From a virus (taxonomy: Duplodnaviria; Heunggongvirae; Uroviricota; Caudoviricetes), in the IMG/VR virus record IMGVR_UViG_2609459792_000007: DNA of 64,000 bases. One strand, given 5' to 3'. The notes below the pieces were generated by a model. It did not search any database. It was not told where the DNA came from and was given only the letters and a program-made list of their open reading frames with translations. Positions within the stretch are counted from its first letter, which is position 1; every line of letters begins with the position of its first letter. Shown one piece after another: positions 32,723 to 44,560 of the stretch. Made by a program: the position numbers and the translations under genes.

Positions 32723-35700
32723 TTGGACATGGAACAGTTCAAGAAGAAAAAATTACCGCTTCTTATTGCCGGTGCTGGTGGCAAGAAAAGTAAAAGCTCC
32801 AGCCGTACCCCGGTTGAAGCTGATGATACTGTCAATTCTCGTGCTATGGCAGCCATCCTCGACCTTCTTGGCGAGGGGGTTATCGGTGGCCTGGTAAATG
32901 GCGCAAAGTCGATCTTCATCGACGATTTACCGATCTTGAATGAAGATGGCTCTTCCAACTTCAGCGGTATTACATGGGATTTTCGTGACGGCTCACAAGA
33001 CCAGACGCCAATGGCTGGTTTTGATTTTGTTGAAACGCCTAAGTCCGTAAATATTCAGCTTAAAAAAACACACGACGTTACGGTTTCAATCGATAACGAT
33101 GAAGCTGATCGCGTTCGTGTCATCATGAAATTCCCCTCTTTACGTAGCGTTGATAAAAGCTCTGGCGATACAAATGGCACTACGGTGAAGTACAAATTCC
33201 AGATCGCCAACGGAGACGCAACATTTTCTGATGTAGTGGCAGAAGGTGAGAAAAGCGTTGATATCACGCTAACGGCAAAGAAAACAGGCGTGTATTACCG
33301 TAGCTATGAGCTGAAACTACCTAAGCCTGGTCGTGCATACAAGGTTAGGGTGATTCGTCTTACAGATGATAACAGTAGCCAGTACCTCTACAACGACACA
33401 TGGGTTGATTCCATAGGTGAGATTGTCGACACGCCAATGAACTACCCTAACTCTGCTCTTGTTGGCTTGAAGGTCAATTCAGAGCAGTTTGGTAGCACAA
33501 TGCCTTCCCGTTCGTATTTGGTGCGCGGTATCAAAATCCGAGTACCGTCAAACTACAACGAATACACCAATACTTATGTCGGCGTATGGGACGGTACTTT
33601 TAAGCTGTTGTCTTCTTCAAACCCTGCGTGGATTCTCTACGATTTGCTTACCAATACTCGGTATGGTCTTGGGCAATTTGTGTCGGAATCCATGATTGAC
33701 CTCGGCCAGCTCTACCAGATTGGTCGATATTGTGACGAAGAGGTCGATGATGGCTTTGGGGGTAAAGAGAAACGCTTTGCAATCAATACGCAGATCACCA
33801 GTCGACAAGACGCATACCGATTAATTCAGGATATTGCCGGTGCATTCCGCGGCATGGTGTTTTGGGCTGGTGGCATGGTTAACATCATGCAGGATAGCCC
33901 ATCAGATCCGGTAATGATGTTTACCAACTCCAACGTCAAAGATGGACTGTTTACCTATAAAGGTTCTGCGCGTAAAGATCGCCCATCCGTTGCGCTCGTA
34001 ACCTACAACAACAAGGAGGACGGTTATAAGCAAAATATCGAGTACGTTGAAGATCAGGACGCAATGCGCCGTTATGGTGAGCGTAAAACAGAAGTCGTAG
34101 CATTTGGATGTACAAGCCGAGGCCAGGCTCACCGAGTTGGTTTGTGGCTTTTGTATACCGCCAGAATGGAGTCGGATGTAATTACATTTACTGCCGGCTT
34201 AGACGCCTCATTTCTGATGCCCGGTGAAACCGTTCTGATTCAGAACAAATATCGTGCAGGTAAACGTAACTCCGGTCGAATTGTGGAGTTTACCAAAAAC
34301 AGCATCACTCTCGATGCGCCTGTGTCGTTAGCTAAAAGCGGCAGCTTTATTCGGATATTGAATCAGGAAGGCAAAATCGTTGAACGTGATGTTCTTGAAA
34401 CTGGCGAAAACATAACAAAGGTTACGTTTTCAAAAGCTCTGTCGTCAGCGGAAACGCCTGTTTTGAACGGTGTCTGGACAATTACAGAACCAGATCTCGA
34501 ACCTATGCGCGTTCGCATCGTTAACATCGCGCAGGGGGAAACGCCGGGTAGCTTTGACATCACCGCTGTTGAGAACAATCCGTCTAAATATGAGGCAATC
34601 GACAATGGTGCAACGCTTATCCCGCAGAATACGACGGTATTGGACCCGACTTACTCTAAGCCATCTAATTTGCAAATCACTGAAGGGACTTATCTCTCAA
34701 GCCCGGGCAACCTGTCAGTAAAACTGACTGCAACATGGGAAGGAAAATCTCCAGAGTATTGGATCAGTTGGCGACGTTCTGATGAAAACAATGTATCGAA
34801 CTGGCAATCGGCGCGTGTAACCGAAGAGCAATACGAAATCGTTAATGTCGCGGAGAATGGACGCTACGACTTCCAACTGTATGCGGTTTCATTCAACGGT
34901 AAAAAAACAGAGATTATCAGTACCGTTTATCAGGTGTTGGGCACAATGACACCGCCGGATGCCCCAACGTCATTAACGGCCGTTGGAGACTATCGTAATG
35001 TGATACTGAATTGGGTTAATCCAGATTCGGTAGACCTTGATCACATTAATGTTTACGCATCCCAGACCAACAATCTGGATACGGCGAAACTGATCGCAGA
35101 GTCTGCAAGCACCACCTTTACACATGCTGGTCTTGGGGATAGCGAAACGTGGTATTACTGGGTTCGAGCATCGAACAAGCGAGGTATGTTAAGCCCTCCG
35201 AACTCAAACTTGGGTACAGAGGCGACAACTCGCGATGTACTGTCGTTCCTGGCTGGCAAAATTACATCTTCCGAGCTTGGTCAGGCTCTGCTTGAGGACA
35301 TCAACAGTAAAGCCTCTCAAGAAGCAGTTGACGAGTTAAATGAGCATATCAACCAGAGCGTCGAATCTTTGGAGGGGTCGGTAAACGACGTTAAGGAAGA
35401 TATAGCTGAATTAGATAAGCAGTTCAGCGATAACCTCGCGGGTTTTGAAATAAAATTCAACGAGCGTAGCGATGCTTTGGAGAACGCACAAACCGAGCTT
35501 AAAGGTGAGGTTTCGGCAACGATCGACAAGGTCAATGAAGCGTTTGAAAAAATTGATGCTACTGATGCTGCAATTGTTGAAATCGAAAACACCGTATCTG
35601 AACACGATAAAGCTCTCGCTAATACAGTCGAGGCAATAAAGGCTGCAAGAGACGAAGCGGCGGCTCTTATTGCTAAGGAAAGCGAGGCTCGTGTAGAAGG

Positions 35701-37453
35701 TGATGCCGCAAACGCTAAACAACTGGAAGTGTTGCAGTCGACGGTAGAGGAAAGTTCCGCAGCTGTTGAAGAAATGAAAAAGACGGTTGCAGAGGTCGAT
35801 CGTGCCAGTGCAGAACTGACTACGAACATTGAGGCGTTAGCCAAAACAAATATTGACCTGGCTCTTCGTCAAGATGAAGACCAGCACAAGCAGATGGTCA
35901 ATAACGCGAAGATCGCAACAACACAGAAAACCTTTGCTGATGATATGTCTGCAATGGCCACGAAGGTTGAGGAAATTCGCGTAGAAATTGGCGAAGACAT
36001 TAAGGCCAGTATTCTGGAAGAGTCCACCGCTCGTGCCGATGGCGATGAAGCGTTGGCAAAGCGTGTCACTCAGCTGCAATCTAAGTTTGAAGGAGATATC
36101 AGCGCGGCGATTAGTACAGAACAGGAGGCTCGTACATCTGCCGATGAAGCTTTGACGAAACAAATAACTCAGCTTGAGTCGAAAGTAAGCAACGATATTG
36201 TCGCAGCCATTAAGGAAGAGCAAGAAGCCCGAGCAACGGAAGATTCGGCTCTGGCAAGCCAGATCACCCAACTTCAGGCAAAAGTTGATGATGATATTTC
36301 TGCTGCAATACGCAGTGAGCAGGAGGCGCGTGCGAGCGGAGACTCTGCGTTAGCTAAACAAATAAACCAGCTTCAAGCAAAGGTTGACGGTGATATATCC
36401 GCCGCCATCACTCAGGAGCAGGAGGCCAGAGCAAGTGCTGACGAGGCGCTCTCACGAGAAATTAACAGCCTGCGGGCGCAGACCGGAACTGACATTGCCG
36501 CAGCCGTTGCTGTAGAGACAAAGGCAAGGACTGACGCCGATAGTGCATTGTCCAGCCAGATTACATCTCTTACAGCAAAAGCTAATGATCTCGAGGCGTC
36601 TCTTGCCAAAGAAACAACGGCTCGTGCAGATGGCGATACCGCTTTAACAAAAGAGGTTTCAAGTTTAAAAGCACAGACTGCGAAAGATATTAGTGCGGCC
36701 GTTGCAGTGGAAACGCAGGCTCGAACTGATGCTGACTCGGCGCTATCGTCTCAGATCACCAAGCTGACCTCTCAATACAAAGAGGATATTAAAGCGGCTG
36801 TAGCAACCGAAACGAAAACGCGTACAGAGCAAGATGCGGCACTGGCGACTCAAATCACAAACTTAGAGTCTCAAACAGCAGCCAACATTTCTGCGGCGGT
36901 CACAACTGAAACGACAGCGAGAACGCAGGCAGATAATGCACTAAGTGGGCGAATCGATACTCTGAAAGCAGAGGTGGATGGAAATACCGCGACAATTCAA
37001 CAGCAGGCAACAGCCATTGCTGATACCAACAAAAAAGTCTCAACCGCGTGGACGTTGAAAATGGAGACTTCAACGAGCGGAGGGCAGAAGTATGTTGCCG
37101 GTATTGCGCTTGGTATCGACACCACCGGTCTTTCTCAGTTTTTGGTGCAGGCGGACAGATTTGGTTTGGTCAACTCTGTTAACGGGAAGATCACCACGCC
37201 ATTTGTTATCGAAAACAGTATCGCCTATATGAATGGTGCGTATATCAAGGATGGCACAATCACCAATGCAAAAGTAGGCGATCTGCAATCTACCAATTTT
37301 GTTAGCGGTAGATCTGGATGGCGGTTCGGCAAAAATGGAACGCTTGAGATCAACGGTAATAGCGGCGGCAATGGGCGACTGGTCATAAATGGTCAGCGGA
37401 TTGACGTTTATGACGATAACAACGTCCTACGAGTAAGAATTGGCCTTCTGTGA
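32723..37453 (+). CDS. tail tip / host specificity protein (lambda J-like) with internal tandem repeats
   Basis: 1576-aa ORF after the M/L/K/I-like series; central block of about ten 33-aa repeats. Confidence 0.8.
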   Translation: MDMEQFKKKKLPLLIAGAGGKKSKSSSRTPVEADDTVNSRAMAAILDLLGEGVIGGLVNGAKSIFIDDLPILNEDGSSNFSGITWDFRDGSQDQTPMAGFDFVETPKSVNIQLKKTHDVTVSIDNDEADRVRVIMKFPSLRSVDKSSGDTNGTTVKYKFQIANGDATFSDVVAEGEKSVDITLTAKKTGVYYRSYELKLPKPGRAYKVRVIRLTDDNSSQYLYNDTWVDSIGEIVDTPMNYPNSALVGLKVNSEQFGSTMPSRSYLVRGIKIRVPSNYNEYTNTYVGVWDGTFKLLSSSNPAWILYDLLTNTRYGLGQFVSESMIDLGQLYQIGRYCDEEVDDGFGGKEKRFAINTQITSRQDAYRLIQDIAGAFRGMVFWAGGMVNIMQDSPSDPVMMFTNSNVKDGLFTYKGSARKDRPSVALVTYNNKEDGYKQNIEYVEDQDAMRRYGERKTEVVAFGCTSRGQAHRVGLWLLYTARMESDVITFTAGLDASFLMPGETVLIQNKYRAGKRNSGRIVEFTKNSITLDAPVSLAKSGSFIRILNQEGKIVERDVLETGENITKVTFSKALSSAETPVLNGVWTITEPDLEPMRVRIVNIAQGETPGSFDITAVENNPSKYEAIDNGATLIPQNTTVLDPTYSKPSNLQITEGTYLSSPGNLSVKLTATWEGKSPEYWISWRRSDENNVSNWQSARVTEEQYEIVNVAENGRYDFQLYAVSFNGKKTEIISTVYQVLGTMTPPDAPTSLTAVGDYRNVILNWVNPDSVDLDHINVYASQTNNLDTAKLIAESASTTFTHAGLGDSETWYYWVRASNKRGMLSPPNSNLGTEATTRDVLSFLAGKITSSELGQALLEDINSKASQEAVDELNEHINQSVESLEGSVNDVKEDIAELDKQFSDNLAGFEIKFNERSDALENAQTELKGEVSATIDKVNEAFEKIDATDAAIVEIENTVSEHDKALANTVEAIKAARDEAAALIAKESEARVEGDAANAKQLEVLQSTVEESSAAVEEMKKTVAEVDRASAELTTNIEALAKTNIDLALRQDEDQHKQMVNNAKIATTQKTFADDMSAMATKVEEIRVEIGEDIKASILEESTARADGDEALAKRVTQLQSKFEGDISAAISTEQEARTSADEALTKQITQLESKVSNDIVAAIKEEQEARATEDSALASQITQLQAKVDDDISAAIRSEQEARASGDSALAKQINQLQAKVDGDISAAITQEQEARASADEALSREINSLRAQTGTDIAAAVAVETKARTDADSALSSQITSLTAKANDLEASLAKETTARADGDTALTKEVSSLKAQTAKDISAAVAVETQARTDADSALSSQITKLTSQYKEDIKAAVATETKTRTEQDAALATQITNLESQTAANISAAVTTETTARTQADNALSGRIDTLKAEVDGNTATIQQQATAIADTNKKVSTAWTLKMETSTSGGQKYVAGIALGIDTTGLSQFLVQADRFGLVNSVNGKITTPFVIENSIAYMNGAYIKDGTITNAKVGDLQSTNFVSGRSGWRFGKNGTLEINGNSGGNGRLVINGQRIDVYDDNNVLRVRIGLL
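35990..36980 (+). repeat. about ten tandem 99-bp (33-codon) repeats inside the J-like gene
   Basis: Repeating EQEARxxADxALxxQITxLxxKVxxDISAAI units. Confidence 0.8.
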
Positions 37454-37546: not shown

Positions 37547-40500
37547 ATGTGGTACAGGGAAGGTACTATCACATTTACACAGGGTAGTAATACTCTGGTT
37601 GGGGTTGGGACAGCCTGGAACGTAACAGCTAATGGTGTGTTGCCGGGGATGATCGTCATTGGCCCCGACAATAAGCTGTATGAGATCAAGCGCGTAACAA
37701 GCGATACGAACATTGTTCTCTCAGAACCTTATACCGGTGAAACTCAGTCTGAAGTTCCGTGCCGAATCATTACTACCTATGAAGGCGACTTAACACAGTT
37801 TAGCGCGCGCTTTACCGCGCTAATGTCGCGTATGTCGGCTGATTCCAAGTCCATGCGTAGTTGGTTGACTGCTCTGGATGAGGTGACAATCGAGCGTGAA
37901 GACGGTACAGAAGTGACCGTTAAGCCGCTGATGCAGATCGTCAACGAGCACAACGAAAACGTTGAGTGGTATAAAAATAACACTGACGCGATTGATGCCG
38001 CTGGTGACAAAGCTCGTGAGGCGGCGGCCAGTGCTGCCGCAGCAGCAGAAAGCGCCAATACCGCTGGAGAAAAAGCATCTCAAGCGTCTCAAAGTGCATC
38101 CGCTGCGGCATCCTCACAAAGTGCCGCAAGTGCGAGTGCAACTGCTGCGAAAAAATCTGAAACGAACGCAGAATCAGCATATCTATCGGCAGCAGAATCA
38201 GCGTCTGTAGCGTCGACCAAAGCATCGGAGGCAGCAACATCTGCGTCCAGTGCCTCTGCATCTAAGGATGCAGCCAAAGCATCAGAGACTAACGCTTCAT
38301 CGAGTGCAAACGCGGCTGCATCATTTGCAACAGAAGCTGAAAATTCGTCTAAGGCAGCAAAAGCGTCAGAGACAAACGCAAAAGCATCTGAAACGGCAGC
38401 CGGGCAGAGTGCATCGTCTGCAAACAGTTCGAAATCTGCGGCAGAAGCGTCAGCAAGCGCAGCCTCAGCAAGTGCGGATAGTGCTTCATCAAGTGCAACT
38501 GCGGCAGGAAAATCTGCGGAAAGCGCGTCGTCATCAGCGACAACAGCTACCGCAAAAGCGACTGAGGCGACGAATCAGGCTACAGCTGCTAAAAATTCAG
38601 CATCGGCAGCAAAATCCTCTGAAACAAATGCAAAGGCTTCTGAAGATAATGCCGCTTCCTCTAAAGAGGCAGCTGCTGAATCTGCAAGTTCTGCGTCTGC
38701 ATCAGCCACCTCGGCATCTGCTTCAAAAGATGAGGCGACCAAGCAGGCATCAGCTGCGAAGGGGAGTGCTTCAACGGCATCCACGAAAGCAACAGAGGCG
38801 GCAGGTAGTGCGACGGCTGCATCTCAGAGCAAAGCTGCTGCTGAATCCGCTGCGACCCGTGCAGAAGCTGCCGCTGATCGTGCTGAAGAGATCGCCGGTG
38901 CAGTTGCGATGGAAGACGCAAGCCTTACCACCAAAGGTGTTGTGAAACTTAGCAGTGCTGTCGATAGCACCAGTGAATCGCTGGCCGCAACGCCAAAGGC
39001 AGTTAAAGCAGTCAATGACAATGCGAACAGCAGGGTGCCATCTAACCGAAAAATTAACGGGAAAGCACTGACTGCGGATATCACATTAACGCCGAAAGAT
39101 ATTGGTACTTTAAATTCAATAACGATGTCTTTCTCTGGCGGGGCCGGGTGGTTCAAACTGGCTACTGTTACAATGCCACAAGCGAGTTCCATCGTTTACA
39201 TCGCATTGATTGGTGGCGCTGGTTACAACGTCGGCTCCCCACATCAGGCAGGCATTTCAGAACTGGTTCTACGAGCAGGCAATGGAAACCCCAAAGGGAT
39301 TACAGGTGCTTTGTGGAAGCGTACAGCTGTCGGATTAACGAATTTCGCCTGGATCAACACATCCGGCGATACATATGATATTTACGTTGAAATTGGCAAT
39401 TATGCGACGAGTGTAAATATCCATTGGGATTGTACTGCAAATGCGTCAGTTTCTATTTATACATCGCCAACATATTCAGCGAGTAAGCCTTCCAGCGTTA
39501 CCGATGGTGTTGTTTATACGTTGTATAGCACACATCAGAAACCGACGCCGTTAGATATTGGAGCACTGCCAACAACCGGAGGAACAGTTTCAGGTCCGTT
39601 GTCTGTTACTGGTGGGATCACCGGAACATTAAATGGTAATGCAAGTACAGCAACGAAATTGCAGACGGCAAGATCTATCGGTGGAGTTGTTTTCGACGGT
39701 TCTGCAAATATTAACCTTCCAGGTGTAAACACTACGGGTAATCAGAACACCACTGGTAATGCTGCAACTGCTACAAAACTTCAGACGGCACGCACAATTG
39801 GCGGGGTAGCATTTGATGGCAGTGTCAATATCGACCTGCCGGGCGTGAATAAAGCAGGCAATCAGAGCACTACCGGCAATGCTGCAACCGCTACAAAACT
39901 ACAGACAGCGCGTACAATCAACGGTGTTAAGTTTGATGGTTCTGCGGACATAACGCTGACTCCTGCGAACCTTGACGTATACAGCAAAAGCGAAATAGAC
40001 AATAAAAAAGGGATGAGAAAATACACTTTTTCAGCGCCTGCAAATGCAGTAAGCGGTAAGTGGTATCCTATAGTCTTTCGCCGATCTGGAGGCAGTACCG
40101 ATGAATTAGCCTCACGAGTTGTGATAACTACTTATTCCTCAGCTGGCGGATACGCCATGAATAATTGTGAATTTAATGGGTTTGTTATGCCTGGCGGTTG
40201 GTCTGATCGCGGTTCATATGCGGCTGGTTTTTTCTCAATATATTCTACTGCTGAGCGAGCTATACACTCGATTATTTCAAGTGTGAAAGATGACGATTTG
40301 TGTAGTGTATTTTACGTTGAAGCCAGAGCATTCCCTATCAAGATATTTGCTGAGGAGGGCTTGAACGTAATTGTTCCAACGGCTGATTATGCAGTTGGTC
40401 AAACCACTTATAAGTGGGGGGCAACTGATCCTTTATCAGAAAGTACGAATGCACAGATAATTTTGGACTTTAAAAATGGACGAGGTTATTACTGTTCACA

Positions 40501-41704
40501 TCCATTTATTTCAAGTCTTTCAGGAAATGCTGCTACAGCAACGAAATTGCAGACTGCAAGAACTATCGGCGGCGTGGCCTTCGATGGATCTGCGAACATA
40601 AATTTGCCTGGTGTAAACACGGCAGGTAATCAGAATACAACGGGCAACGCGGCTACTGCTACGAAGTTGCAAACAGCGAGAAACATCAATGGTGTTAAGT
40701 TTGATGGCTCAGGCGATATCAACATTAATACATTGGTATCTCGTGGCCGAGTTACGGCGTTAAGCGGCTCTACTCAAGGCACTGCTGGCATTCAAATGTA
40801 CGAGGCGTACAACAATAGTTATCCGACCACGTATGGCAACGTATTGCACATGAAAGGTGCGAGTGCTGCTGGTGAGGGCGAGTTGCTTATTGGCTGGAGT
40901 GGTACGAGCGGTGCACATGCGCCGGTTTTCATTCGCTCCCGAAGAGATACCACTGATGCGGCATGGTCAGCGTGGGCGCAGGTATATACCGCTAAGGATT
41001 CAATCCCTGGTGTGAATACAACCGGTAATCAGAACACTACTGGTAATGCCGCAACCGCCACAAAATTGCAGACAGCAAGGAAAATTGCTGGTGTGGCGTT
41101 TGATGGCTCTGCCGATATTACTTTGACTGCGGCTAACCTTAATGCTTACACGAAAACAGAGGTAACAAACCTTCTAAGTTCCTATGCAAGCAGATCATCA
41201 CTGACAGGCTATAGTGGCAACCTGGATATTATTGCTGAAACACTGGTTGTCAAATCAGGCGGTAGTGGAGGGTTTGCTATATGGGATATTGGCACAACTA
41301 CTAGCGGTGCCAATATGTACATTGATCCAAACCCAGGTATCAATACAGTTTGGCGTTCAACATCTTCAAGGCGCTATAAAAAGGATATTGAAACATTACA
41401 AGATCGATATGCTGATGAACTTTTGTCATTAAGACCTGTTTGGTATCGTTCAATTTGTCGAGGTGACCGAAAGGATTGGGGGTATTACGGCCTTATTGCT
41501 GAAGAGGTTGGTGAGATTGCCCCGCAATATGTCCATTGGCGTGAACCAACAAATAATGATTCTCCAGAAGATATTTCCTCCAATGGTATGGTCGCTGAAG
41601 GAGTGATGTATGAACGTTTGGTTGTACCACTCATTCATCATATTCAGCAATTGACCAAAAGGGTTGAGGAGCTTGAAAAGAAGTTAAATTCACCTAAAGA
41701 ATAA
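37547..41704 (+). CDS. long tail fibre with C-terminal intramolecular chaperone (peptidase S74-like)
   Basis: 1385 aa; Ala/Ser-rich segment; repeats NTTGNQNTTGNAATATKLQTAR; C-terminus ...DWGYYGLIAEEVGEIAPQYV... typical of autoproteolytic chaperone domains. Confidence 0.8.
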   Translation: MWYREGTITFTQGSNTLVGVGTAWNVTANGVLPGMIVIGPDNKLYEIKRVTSDTNIVLSEPYTGETQSEVPCRIITTYEGDLTQFSARFTALMSRMSADSKSMRSWLTALDEVTIEREDGTEVTVKPLMQIVNEHNENVEWYKNNTDAIDAAGDKAREAAASAAAAAESANTAGEKASQASQSASAAASSQSAASASATAAKKSETNAESAYLSAAESASVASTKASEAATSASSASASKDAAKASETNASSSANAAASFATEAENSSKAAKASETNAKASETAAGQSASSANSSKSAAEASASAASASADSASSSATAAGKSAESASSSATTATAKATEATNQATAAKNSASAAKSSETNAKASEDNAASSKEAAAESASSASASATSASASKDEATKQASAAKGSASTASTKATEAAGSATAASQSKAAAESAATRAEAAADRAEEIAGAVAMEDASLTTKGVVKLSSAVDSTSESLAATPKAVKAVNDNANSRVPSNRKINGKALTADITLTPKDIGTLNSITMSFSGGAGWFKLATVTMPQASSIVYIALIGGAGYNVGSPHQAGISELVLRAGNGNPKGITGALWKRTAVGLTNFAWINTSGDTYDIYVEIGNYATSVNIHWDCTANASVSIYTSPTYSASKPSSVTDGVVYTLYSTHQKPTPLDIGALPTTGGTVSGPLSVTGGITGTLNGNASTATKLQTARSIGGVVFDGSANINLPGVNTTGNQNTTGNAATATKLQTARTIGGVAFDGSVNIDLPGVNKAGNQSTTGNAATATKLQTARTINGVKFDGSADITLTPANLDVYSKSEIDNKKGMRKYTFSAPANAVSGKWYPIVFRRSGGSTDELASRVVITTYSSAGGYAMNNCEFNGFVMPGGWSDRGSYAAGFFSIYSTAERAIHSIISSVKDDDLCSVFYVEARAFPIKIFAEEGLNVIVPTADYAVGQTTYKWGATDPLSESTNAQIILDFKNGRGYYCSHPFISSLSGNAATATKLQTARTIGGVAFDGSANINLPGVNTAGNQNTTGNAATATKLQTARNINGVKFDGSGDININTLVSRGRVTALSGSTQGTAGIQMYEAYNNSYPTTYGNVLHMKGASAAGEGELLIGWSGTSGAHAPVFIRSRRDTTDAAWSAWAQVYTAKDSIPGVNTTGNQNTTGNAATATKLQTARKIAGVAFDGSADITLTAANLNAYTKTEVTNLLSSYASRSSLTGYSGNLDIIAETLVVKSGGSGGFAIWDIGTTTSGANMYIDPNPGINTVWRSTSSRRYKKDIETLQDRYADELLSLRPVWYRSICRGDRKDWGYYGLIAEEVGEIAPQYVHWREPTNNDSPEDISSNGMVAEGVMYERLVVPLIHHIQQLTKRVEELEKKLNSPKE

Positions 41705-41764
41705 ACAACTTCAATCGGGGCTGGAACTAAACCAGCCCCTGCTTAAAAGTATAAGGATATATTT

Positions 41765-42019
41765 ATGAGCTATGGTGCACAGGTTTGGTCGCCATCAAGA
41801 CAGGAGATGGTCGATGCGTTGGCCCCTGTTTATTACCTCGATTATTTTACTCCCTCTGGTTCTGGAAGTAGAACATATGAGGTTGAGGCGGGATTGGGAA
41901 TCGACTATTACATAATGGACGTAACCAATGGGAAATACACAAGTCTTACGGTTTCTGGAAATACCATTTCATGGTCTGGAGCTAGTGGCAATTTAAACAT
42001 ATTGGTTTTTCAAAAATAA
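41765..42019 (+). CDS. hypothetical protein (84 aa)
   Basis: AT-rich ORF after fibre gene; RBS aaggatatatttATG. Confidence 0.5.
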   Translation: MSYGAQVWSPSRQEMVDALAPVYYLDYFTPSGSGSRTYEVEAGLGIDYYIMDVTNGKYTSLTVSGNTISWSGASGNLNILVFQK

Positions 42020-42627
42020 TGTACGGAAGCAAGATATATCGATCTGACGGGAAGGTCTGGATGTCTCCTTCTTTGTCTCCTATCGTTTTTCAGAGAAAGC
42101 AGGTTGTTTCTTTGTCTGGCGGGACAGAGTTTAACACCCAAATATCTCCAGATCGTTCACCGATGATTTTTGTTGCCTATTCGAAAGCTGTTTCATTAAT
42201 AGCCAACAGAATAGTGCGTAACAACCAGGTGATTTACAGTTTCGGAGGTCAGGGTAGCGACTCTAGTGCCACGATATACGTATTTTCGAAAGGTATAGCC
42301 AAAAAAGAAACTTGGGGCATGAGTTTTTTCAATGCGCGAGGAGAGGAGATCTATAATACGGCAAATATCCCACTTTCATTTACCTTTCTTAATAATACGG
42401 AGTGGAACAGTTCTGGAGGGCATGTTTTTGATTACCCGCCAGCGATAATCCCAACATATGCAAATGTGTTCGCGGTTCCAGTACCGGGCGGGGCCATGAC
42501 AATGGTTTATGGATATGCGGCATATGGAAATACTGTTAGTTCCATATTCGTAAACCAACTTAATGGCGGCCATAGTTTTAGCGTAAATGGCAGAGTACCG
42601 GTAATAAATAGAAATCTGTATAACTGA
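42019..42627 (+). CDS. hypothetical protein (202 aa)
   Basis: AT-rich ORF coupled to upstream gene. Confidence 0.5.
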   Translation: MYGSKIYRSDGKVWMSPSLSPIVFQRKQVVSLSGGTEFNTQISPDRSPMIFVAYSKAVSLIANRIVRNNQVIYSFGGQGSDSSATIYVFSKGIAKKETWGMSFFNARGEEIYNTANIPLSFTFLNNTEWNSSGGHVFDYPPAIIPTYANVFAVPVPGGAMTMVYGYAAYGNTVSSIFVNQLNGGHSFSVNGRVPVINRNLYN

Positions 42628-42637
42628 TGAGTAAACG

Positions 42638-42868
42638 ATGAAAAGATTATTTCTAACAATAGCTGTTGTTCTCTCTCTTACTGGCTGTCAGAAATTGCCG
42701 ACACCCATATGTTATGGTGAGGCTATCATTGGTGGACAGGAGACAGTCATACCTATATATGCTGTTAAAAAGGTTAACGGCTATACCTTATACAAAGCGG
42801 GTAGCATCTATAACTGGCGATGGGTTGGAGTAGGTGCTTTCTCATCAGTGCGTTGCAATGCTGAATGA
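42638..42868 (+). CDS. small lipoprotein
   Basis: MKRLFLTIAVVLSLTGC: signal peptide with lipobox LTGC. Confidence 0.6.
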   Translation: MKRLFLTIAVVLSLTGCQKLPTPICYGEAIIGGQETVIPIYAVKKVNGYTLYKAGSIYNWRWVGVGAFSSVRCNAE

Positions 42869-42888
42869 TAAGTAAGTACACACCTACA
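42864..42888. promoter_or_regulatory. family B motif GATAAGTAAGTAC
   Basis: Upstream of lysis genes; followed by TTGACT -35-like hexamer at 42925. Confidence 0.45.
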
Positions 42889-42949
42889 ACAAAAGGGTGA
42901 AATGTGATATAAATCCGCCATCCCGATTTGACTTTTCATGGAGGAAAAC

Positions 42950-43273
42950 ATGTCGAACGAGATGGCGGGCGTTACAACAGAGCAAGTTGAGCGTATTGCC
43001 GCGATCGTTGCTCGGGAGGTTGTTGGCAAATTAGGTAAAGAGCTACGTGAAGAAATTGGCCAGGAGGTCAATGATCAGCTGAAAACCTACTTTGGTGATA
43101 TGACCCCGGCGCAACATAGTATTCAACACTCCAATCTGGACAAACTCCTTAACCGGTTAGATTCCATCTCCAGTGGGTTCTTTGGCGGCATTGTTTCTAA
43201 AATAACGTCGTTCATTATTACCGCACTGCTTTTGGGGTTAGCCGCGTATGGCGTAAAAAATGGACTGCAATAA
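42950..43273 (+). CDS. putative holin-like membrane protein
   Basis: Single C-terminal hydrophobic helix (ITSFIITALLLGLAAYGV); first gene of lysis cluster; start uncertain (42938 or 42950). Confidence 0.4.
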   Translation: MSNEMAGVTTEQVERIAAIVAREVVGKLGKELREEIGQEVNDQLKTYFGDMTPAQHSIQHSNLDKLLNRLDSISSGFFGGIVSKITSFIITALLLGLAAYGVKNGLQ

Positions 43274-43286
43274 CAGGAGATCAAGG

Positions 43287-43979
43287 ATGAAGACTCCGAG
43301 AGGCATTCGTAATAATAACCCCGGTAATCTTGATAAAGGATCACCGTGGCAAGGTCTGGTTGCGAATCCAGACGAACCGCGTTTTTGCACGTTTAAAGAC
43401 CCTGTTTGGGGGATTCGTGCGCTGGCGGTGACTCTAATTACCTACCACGACAAACGTCGCGCAAAAGACGGCTCAAGTATCGATACCATTCGTGAAGTTA
43501 TTGAACGTTGGGCACCGCCGAATGAAAACAACACTGACGCCTACATTAATGAGGTGTCTAAAGCCGTTGGTGTAACCGCAGACATGATCATCGATCTGCA
43601 TGATTACGACATCCTTCGACCTTTGGTTGAGGCAATCATTCGCCACGAGAATGGCCGGGGTCCGCTAAAAACGCTGAACACCTGGTATGCGGCAGAAGTT
43701 ATTGAGGAAGGTCTGCGTCGAGCTGGCGTTGTTAAGCCGGTGAAAACCGTGAAGGCTGTTCCTGTAACTAAAGAAACAGCAGGCGCAACTGTTACAGCAG
43801 GTATTGGTCTGGCGCAACTGGCCGATGTTATGCCGCAGGTTTCCGCTGCTATGGATAAGGCACAAGGCCATATCTCTAGCGGGGATACAGTACGCATCAT
43901 CTTCGGTATTGCCACTATTGTTGTGGCCGGATTCATTGCCTGGTCGCAGGTAAGAAAACACCAGAAAGGGATGGTCTAA
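43287..43979 (+). CDS. putative endolysin with C-terminal membrane anchor
   Basis: ATG 43287 with RBS caggaga; position between holin-like and spanin genes; C-terminal hydrophobic helix; catalytic class not assignable. Confidence 0.45.
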   Translation: MKTPRGIRNNNPGNLDKGSPWQGLVANPDEPRFCTFKDPVWGIRALAVTLITYHDKRRAKDGSSIDTIREVIERWAPPNENNTDAYINEVSKAVGVTADMIIDLHDYDILRPLVEAIIRHENGRGPLKTLNTWYAAEVIEEGLRRAGVVKPVKTVKAVPVTKETAGATVTAGIGLAQLADVMPQVSAAMDKAQGHISSGDTVRIIFGIATIVVAGFIAWSQVRKHQKGMV

Positions 43980-43980
43980 T

Positions 43981-44232
43981 ATGCTAGGCAGCCTGATGAC
44001 AAAGCTAAAAGTTGCTTTGATTACGCTGGCTGCCGTTCTTTTCGTTCTGGTCGGCGCTTACACGATGGGCGGGAATGCAGCACGACGAGCAATGGAAGAG
44101 AAGGCAAAACAGGAAGACAGAAAACGACTTCAAAGCACAGTGGACGTCAAAAATGAAACACTTGATGAGTTACGGCGCAAGGATGCTTCTTCTGTTCATC
44201 ATGAGTTGCACAATAAGTGGTTGCGTGATTAA
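43981..44232 (+). CDS. i-spanin (Rz-like)
   Basis: N-terminal TM helix then charged periplasmic region. Confidence 0.6.
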   Translation: MLGSLMTKLKVALITLAAVLFVLVGAYTMGGNAARRAMEEKAKQEDRKRLQSTVDVKNETLDELRRKDASSVHHELHNKWLRD

Positions 44233-44383
44233 GCCTCAACCCGCTGGTGTGCTTTTCTGCGATGCGGCTACACCGCTATACATCAGCCGTGATGATCTCA
44301 TGACCGAAGAGACTGAAAGAGAGGTGCTTTTTCACAATATGATAGGGGAGCGATTGTGTGGATGGGGCAGAAAAGTACCATAA
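44153..44383 (+). CDS. o-spanin (Rz1-like lipoprotein), overlapping i-spanin in another frame
   Basis: MKHLMSYGARMLLLFIMSCTISGC lipobox; begins inside i-spanin gene. Confidence 0.55.
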   Translation: MKHLMSYGARMLLLFIMSCTISGCVIKPQPAGVLFCDAATPLYISRDDLMTEETEREVLFHNMIGERLCGWGRKVP

Positions 44384-44560
44384 CAGAAGAGGAGTTTTCT
44401 AACATAAAATTTGCATATTATTAGAGCACAAGGTAGATTTGGCACATGGATGTCAAGTAAATCATCCCTTGCATTAATGCTGCGACGCATACTCGTAGCC
44501 TCTAAACCCTGACAAGGGTCGCCGCTATGACATTAAGTTAATACCGGCTAAGGTGGACAC

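Follow-up and report, generated by a model that had tools for sequence, protein, structure and literature searches.

A hypervariable locus beside gpJ encodes a terminal receptor-binding protein, accessory proteins and the cognate exclusion protein (PMC8594841; bioRxiv 10.64898/2026.04.02.716166). Within this locus an 'extended cor cassette' has been described (Maffei 2021; PMC13164509; Wietzorrek 2006 as cited in PMC13164509), and it occurs in T1, HK022, N15, ES18, phi80 and 10 FhuA-using BASEL phages (PMC13164509). Every characterised Cor protein (phi80, N15, HK022, mEp167, T1) acts on FhuA, and the BASEL phages with the full trio all use FhuA; Cor-like proteins are also found in BtuB-using phages (PMC13164509). 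The gp23-like 'hand-like' protein of phage JLBYU60 has been predicted to be an FhuA binder (PMC12309495), and a disulphide is common to Llp and Cor according to van den Berg et al. (PMC9586334). Cor-type lipoproteins decide which phages superinfect a cell and can switch off an iron-siderophore transporter, so that they matter for the host range of phages used in therapy and for lysogen physiology. Literature searches returned no publication on Cor in SSU5-like phage-plasmids, the elements considered here.

Genetic setting of the lipoprotein gene

The window, by which we mean the whole stretch of 64,000 nucleotides that was analysed, belongs, by sequence comparison, to an SSU5-like phage-plasmid of Escherichia. 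Matches to its region 41000-44500 were found in the phages Cyrano, PhiR41_1 and SSU5, and those in complete E. coli genomes (172 of 172, from approximately 3% of these genomes) all lie on plasmids of about 100-115 kb. The carrier of cor belongs to a widespread E. coli phage-plasmid family, some members of which have resistance genes. The following features of the window are used below:

32729..37453, plus strand: J, central tail-tip protein, presumed carrier of the A and B products, with a C-terminal Phage_Tail_Tip domain of phi80/N15/T1 type
37547..41704, plus strand: side tail fibre, 1385 aa, with a C-terminal Peptidase_S74 intramolecular chaperone, between J and the cassette
41717..41739, plus strand: GC-rich hairpin GGGGCTGG-N7-CCAGCCCC after the fibre gene, read from the sequence
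41750..42867, plus strand: A-B-cor cassette, a presence/absence unit among SSU5-like plasmids, 41.7% GC
41765..42019, plus strand: gene A, divergent homologue of phi80/N15 gp22, 84 aa (PHROG 557, E 1.3e-24)
42019..42627, plus strand: gene B, divergent homologue of phi80/N15 gp23, 202 aa (PHROG 425)
42638..42868, plus strand: cor, precursor of a Cor-family superinfection-exclusion lipoprotein, 76 aa, ATG to stop
42938..44383, plus strand: lysis cassette directly 3' of cor, from PHROG matches and the Cyrano, SSU5 and RefSeq annotations
42938 or 42950 to 43273, plus strand: holin
43260-43979, plus strand: endolysin ORF, RefSeq-annotated start at 43287
43981-44232, plus strand: Rz
within 44075-44383, plus strand: Rz1 lipoprotein
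45858 onward, plus strand: ParA

A sequence-only reading of the same DNA had placed the lipoprotein directly after the fibre genes; this needs correction, as the genes for 84 and 202 aa separate the side fibre (37547-41704) from cor, and the holin comes next. Its description of the genes at 41765-42627 as AT-rich is right in direction, with 41.7% GC in the cassette against 46.5% in the window and 46-50% in the neighbours, but the skew is modest. Its suggestion that these genes and the lipoprotein form a host-range or exclusion cassette is upheld at the level of homology, through the gp22/gp23 families of phi80, N15, HK75 and JLBYU60.

The lipoprotein is a member of the Cor family

The 76-aa lipoprotein proposed at 42638-42868 was confirmed, with an exact ORF, an LTGC lipobox, a lipobox cysteine at position 17 and matches to Cor models; its tentative assignment to the receptor-blocking Llp/Cor type also stands, through homology for the Cor family and through the predicted fold for Llp. 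The parts of the protein are as follows:

aa 1-16: signal peptide of Cor
aa 14-17: lipobox LTGC, with the codon of the lipidated Cys17 at 42686-42688, plus strand
mature Cor: 60 aa, with conserved Cys25 and Cys73

The precursor opens with MKRLFLTIAVVLSLTGCQKL..., and its N-terminus, MKRLFLTIAVVLSLTG-C17-Q, has the make-up of an SPII signal peptide with lipobox cysteine, featuring a basic n-region (MKR), a hydrophobic core and the lipobox L-T-G-C. As residue +2 is Gln, the Asp inner-membrane retention signal is absent. The NCBIfam equivalog model NF047972 ('phage exclusion lipoprotein Cor') matches residues 1-74 of 76 with 79.5 bits against a cutoff of 31, and PHROG 1119 ('Cor superinfection exclusion protein') matches the ORF with E 7.8e-30, while a Pfam search returned a weak match to LPAM_1, a lipid-attachment site, and nothing else. 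Judged from these similarities, the lipoprotein is clearly a member of the Cor family. At the nucleotide level the ORF and cassette are 96-99.6% identical in 72 PLSDB plasmids and 66 RefSeq E. coli genomes. The same gene on near-identical plasmids is called cor by RefSeq/PGAP (WP_033803601.1); its identity is already captured by standard automatic annotation, under the correct name. A chance ORF at 42638-42868 is ruled out by the conservation and the curated family model matches. PADLOC holds no model for the proteins of gene A, gene B or cor.

Searching a large protein collection with the single Cor sequence gave just 3 fragments, and an alignment query gave the wider family. Aligning 87 family members revealed that Cys17, Cys25 and Cys73 are invariant. 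The invariant Cys25 and Cys73 fit the disulphide noted for Llp and Cor (PMC9586334), and by this analogy a Cys25-Cys73 disulphide probably ties the mature domain.

In tblastn comparisons, Cor of the window shares 59% identity with SSU5_025 ('Cor-like'), 58% with Cor of Stx2-converting phage 86, 47% with HK75 Cor, 42% with phi80 Cor and N15 gp24, and 34% with Cor of the FhuA-dependent Dhillonvirus JLBYU60. It is similar in length to the Cor proteins of phi80, N15 (gp24), HK022/HK75, mEp167 and T1 (76 versus 77-78 aa) and has in common with the phi80/N15/HK75 type the lipobox, two further conserved cysteines and the motif GGQET-x-V/I-P/Q-IY...YRAG/YKAG...NWRWV. As with phi80/N15-type cor, the gene comes after a gp22/gp23-like pair near tail-tip and fibre genes. 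In contrast to the phi80/N15 type, the window protein belongs to a distinct SSU5/Stx2-86 subgroup (57-62% identity inside the group, 43-48% to the phi80 type) and has a linker after the lipid Cys that is 3 residues shorter; its gene has no intergenic promoter region upstream, is followed on the 3' side by lysis genes instead of a side-fibre gene, and is carried by a plasmid-prophage of about 110 kb. SSU5 and the E. coli SSU5-like plasmids (WP_033803601.1) agree with the window in element type and in the order fibre, A, B, cor, holin, but SSU5 has one more gene, for a Gp38-like adhesin, ahead of its cassette, and the window does not.

The predicted fold of Cor is an Llp-like small beta-barrel, with Llp in the FhuA-Llp crystal structure as best match; a Foldseek search with the Cor model did not retrieve Llp. 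T5 Llp (PDB 8A60, 7QJF) resembles Cor in fold alone, with no detectable sequence relationship, and a Cor-family profile did not retrieve Llp from the PDB sequences at E<=10. Sequence profiles built from the Cor and B families found nothing meaningful in the PDB. The T5 receptor-binding protein pb5 is unrelated to A/B. Rtp45 and the Oekolampad superinfection-exclusion lipoprotein with its receptor-binding protein, an LptD system (PMC12685063), differ from the Cor system in lipoprotein family and receptor, and profile searches detected no sequence similarity to them. In tonijn (Warwickvirus; L015 4452-5615), gp18 is a 91-aa lipoprotein starting MKKLIAVIATVAALTGC..., with faint similarity to Cor (E 3e-4), and lies upstream of an A/B pair.

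Genes A and B form a presumed receptor-binding pair

PHROG 557 and PHROG 425, to which A and B belong, take in gp22/gp23 of N15 and phi80 and p21/p22 of HK75, and JLBYU60 gp25/gp26 aligns with them; Pfam has no match to either protein. Such a gp22/gp23-type pair adjoins cor in N15, phi80, HK75 and JLBYU60. In the window, the sequence TAATG at 42017-42021 overlaps the A stop with the B start, and both this overlap and the order A-B-cor are the same in phi80, N15 and HK75. Taken together, A, B and cor are by homology the published extended cor cassette. The receptor-binding locus of Drexlerviridae, Dhillonvirus and lambdoid phages agrees with the window in its three families, their order, the A/B overlap and the type of J tip. 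Elsewhere, however, it lies directly 3' of gpJ, whereas the window cassette is displaced from J by the 4.2-kb side-fibre gene, and A and B of the window are very divergent from their counterparts there.

This divergence can be followed in the pairwise identities. Product A is 69% identical to SSU5_023, 27-36% to Stx86 gp27, tonijn gp17 and CYRAN_88, and about 27% to phi80 gp22. Product B reaches 18-19% with gp23 of phi80, N15 and JLBYU60 in global alignment, 18-24% in end-to-end alignment with the gp23-type proteins of phi80, N15, HK75 and JLBYU60, and 21-23% over partial BLAST alignments with phi80/N15 gp23; BLAST of B against JLBYU60 gp26 found no match. Identities to the tonijn and Stx-type proteins are 24-32%, the tonijn pair being the closest non-SSU5 relative at 31.6%. 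The predicted structure of B, a low-confidence model (pLDDT 61), fits onto the tail-tip receptor-binding protein of phage Oekolampad, for which a structure has been solved. On the side of J, Pfam PF09327 matches residues 1422-1556 (E 1.2e-41), and over its last ~200 aa J shares 30-38% identity with the J C-termini of phi80, HK75, N15 and JLBYU60. We presume that the product of B is the terminal receptor-binding protein on the J tip and that A contributes a small subunit, an accessory or adaptor, to the receptor-binding complex of the tail tip.

The RefSeq plasmids and the SSU5 record (L001 6362-6928; L002 6423-6989) annotate B in an N-terminally truncated form of 188 aa. The conserved N-terminus MYGxxIxxxDGxxWxSP and the TAATG overlap show that B is 202 aa long from 42019 and that the later RefSeq/SSU5 start is wrong.

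Linkage of B and cor is kept in three diverged SSU5-type lineages, at 39-75% identity for B and 59-65% for Cor. The lineages L017 and L019 keep it, and in L019, a metagenome locus, the cassette precedes the fibre gene. Stx2-converting phage 86 (L007 3331-6213) has a 58%-identical cor after a tail fibre end and a Gp38-like adhesin, which are 50-58% identical to SSU5_021/022, with no A/B between adhesin and cor; its own gp27/gp28 pair stands 3 kb beyond cor, beside lom. This fibre-adhesin-cor segment looks like the recombinational import of an SSU5-type segment. On the cassette-bearing plasmid pAVS0968-B (L001 1-1754), J is truncated by the IS66-family element ISEc23 while A, B and cor are intact; as a phage, pAVS0968-B is probably defective.

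Proposed mechanism and receptor of Cor

We consider it likely that cor is the superinfection-exclusion lipoprotein gene of an SSU5-like phage-plasmid and propose that its product blocks the terminal receptor of the phage in the manner of Llp. The precursor would be exported, lipidated at Cys17 and cut by signal peptidase II, and the analogy with Llp (PMC9586334) suggests that Cor would then reside in the periplasmic leaflet of the outer membrane. There the 60-residue mature domain, predicted to be a small beta-barrel and probably holding the Cys25-Cys73 disulphide, would bind the periplasmic face of the outer-membrane protein used as terminal receptor, most likely FhuA, and lock its extracellular loops in a conformation closed to the tail-tip receptor-binding protein, as T5 Llp does. 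The cognate binder would be the products of A (84 aa) and B (202 aa), which we infer to dock on the conserved C-terminal J tip. Such a block would shield the infected cell and keep progeny from being lost to debris.

As the link to FhuA holds for all characterised Cor proteins and for every full trio, this protein is the likeliest receptor. It is also plausible because mature Cor of the window is 45-47% identical to the phi80 group, compared with only 41% between the Cor proteins of phi80 and JLBYU60, both from FhuA-dependent phages. By this analogy the receptor of the window Cor and trio is probably FhuA, and if the target is confirmed, carriage of the plasmid would predict resistance to FhuA-dependent phages. 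To our knowledge, the only receptor requirement known for SSU5 is the LPS core, and this is one reason why FhuA is not established. Others are the occurrence of Cor-like proteins in BtuB-using phages, the nearest non-SSU5 relatives of A and B, which are of the tonijn and Stx types and not of the FhuA type, and the identity of A and B to FhuA-class gp22/gp23, at only 19-27% below the >30% that defines the FhuA receptor-binding class (bioRxiv 10.64898/2026.04.02.716166).

A protein of the same kind and mechanism could instead act on another TonB-dependent transporter, such as BtuB, YncD, FepA or CirA, or on a different outer-membrane protein, a reading to which we give a real, if lesser, chance of being correct and which we would call somewhat unlikely. 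It draws on the identities of B (19-23% to FhuA-class gp23 and 24-32% to the tonijn/Stx type), on the Cor-like lipoproteins that accompany BtuB-using phages (PMC13164509), on Rtp45, an unrelated small lipoprotein that does the same job on LptD (PMC12685063), and on the subgroup that SSU5-type Cor and Stx2-86 Cor form on their own. The uniform action of the characterised Cor proteins on FhuA speaks against another target, as does the use of FhuA by all BASEL phages with the full trio, and two FhuA-associated Cor proteins differ from each other at least as much as the window protein differs from phi80 Cor.

Expression of cor

The stop codon of B and the ATG of cor are 10 nt apart. In phi80 and N15, by contrast, a 110-nt gap and a sigma-70-like promoter lie upstream of cor, both absent in the window, and around cor a promoter is annotated in phi80 and terminators in phi80/N15, whereas no such sites were found at the window cor. 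A consensus scan of 42020-42640, which weak or embedded promoters can escape, found no sigma-70-like site, promoter-like sites in the region are fewer than in shuffled sequence, and scanning between cor and the holin found no terminator-like site. No promoter of its own was detected for the cassette, which is flanked by the fibre gene and the holin; Cor is therefore probably a late product, and co-transcription of cor with the fibre and lysis genes late in infection is the simplest reading.

The alternative that Cor is mainly expressed from the prophage and defends the lysogen against other phages, as a moron in the way of phi80 and N15, and does not serve late self-exclusion, appears unlikely to us. 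In phi80/N15, cor has its own annotated promoter or terminator and is reported to convert lysogens (PMC3594210), and cor of Stx2 phage 86 (58%), standing apart from its own gp27/gp28, looks like an orphan exclusion gene. At the window locus, however, the absence of the 110-nt gap and of a promoter upstream of cor lends lysogenic conversion no support, and between the cassette edges, at 41750 and 42867, there is no space for regulatory DNA. Expression of Cor in the lysogen is possible.

That the lipoprotein belongs to the lysis cassette as an outer-membrane spanin or lysis regulator, a thought prompted by its place directly 5' of holin, endolysin and Rz/Rz1 and by the fact that spanin o-subunits are also small outer-membrane lipoproteins, is highly improbable and was rejected, as a separate Rz/Rz1 pair lies downstream (PHROG 1026, 1275), Cor has clear Cor-model matches and no o-spanin or other lysis-family match, and the same lysis cassette occurs in Cyrano and PhiR41_1, where cor is missing.

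Two apparently alternative receptor modules in SSU5-like elements

About half of the matching PLSDB plasmids carry the cassette (72/147). Most of those lacking it match the window only from 42867, the cor stop codon, onward, and so do the phages Cyrano and PhiR41_1; the left edge lies at about 41750, from where onward some plasmids match exclusively. In Cyrano the holin follows the fibre gene directly, yet its J is 97.6% identical to that of the window, with an essentially identical C-terminus. Cyrano has a different A/B pair, CYRAN_88/89 (L014 3717-4615), 62-63% identical to gp27/gp28 of Stx2 phage 86. CYRAN_87 and a DUF4942 gene flank this pair, which lies at a distance of about 60 kb and has no lipoprotein gene next to it. 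The same arrangement is present in PhiR41_1 (L020 7284-8185). This second A/B site is non-allelic to the cassette, at a distance of about 55-60 kb, and on the cassette-bearing plasmid pTLYA-2 (L016 23684-23826) the genes flanking it are adjacent and the pair is absent.

Cross-tabulating cassette and CYRAN_89 over 42 + 20 accessions among the matches listed, we found none of the 42 cassette-positive plasmids, but 10 of the 20 cassette-negative ones, in the sample of CYRAN_89-positive records (Fisher p 1.7e-6). Among the matches listed, a single A/B pair per element therefore seems to be the rule, in support of the view that the virion needs A/B and that the cassette is one of two alternatives for the receptor module. 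The cassette and the Stx-phage-like pair are apparently mutually exclusive in SSU5-like elements. This apparently exclusive alternation of two non-allelic receptor modules is the sole fresh observation at the locus.

We would go further only tentatively, with a proposal that is more doubtful than not: SSU5-like phage-plasmids might switch their terminal receptor on an unchanged J tip, using either A-B-cor beside the lysis genes or the Stx-like A/B pair (a BamA-type candidate) with no exclusion lipoprotein, with the SSU5-type trio targeting a receptor other than FhuA and its Cor founding a subfamily of new specificity. If the target is confirmed, the polymorphism of cassette and alternative pair would make host-range switching in phage-plasmids easy to approach by genetics.

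The spacer between fibre and holin genes in Cyrano (L006 3629-3650) matches window 41751-41772, the RBS and first codons of gene A, at 18 of 22 positions; the match is too short to be significant as a scar of cassette deletion.

Further features of the region

The hairpin at 41717..41739 lacks a T-run, which makes it a doubtful terminator, and the terminator scan did not call it. In the side-fibre protein (37547-41704) the N-terminal third is long and Ala/Ser-rich, and several copies of a ~40-aa motif (TATKLQTAR-I-GV-FDGS-NI-LPGVN--GNQ-TTGNAA) are dispersed along it; at the DNA level, Tandem Repeats Finder reported no tandem repeats in the fibre-cassette region. In the holin ORF a second in-frame start codon follows the first at a distance of four codons (42938-42952; MEENMSNE...), similar to the dual start of holin/antiholin genes, and RefSeq has the shorter form. 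The start of Rz1, whose lipobox is ...TISGC, falls within the 3' part of Rz but in a different frame, and Rz1 runs past the end of Rz, so that the two genes are overlapped and not embedded. The near-identical plasmid pTLYA-2 (L016 10446-13737, 31076-31552) carries metG, apbC, nrdAB, a thymidylate synthase gene and the trimethoprim-resistance gene dfrA51, which illustrates the accessory load of the SSU5-like phage-plasmid family.
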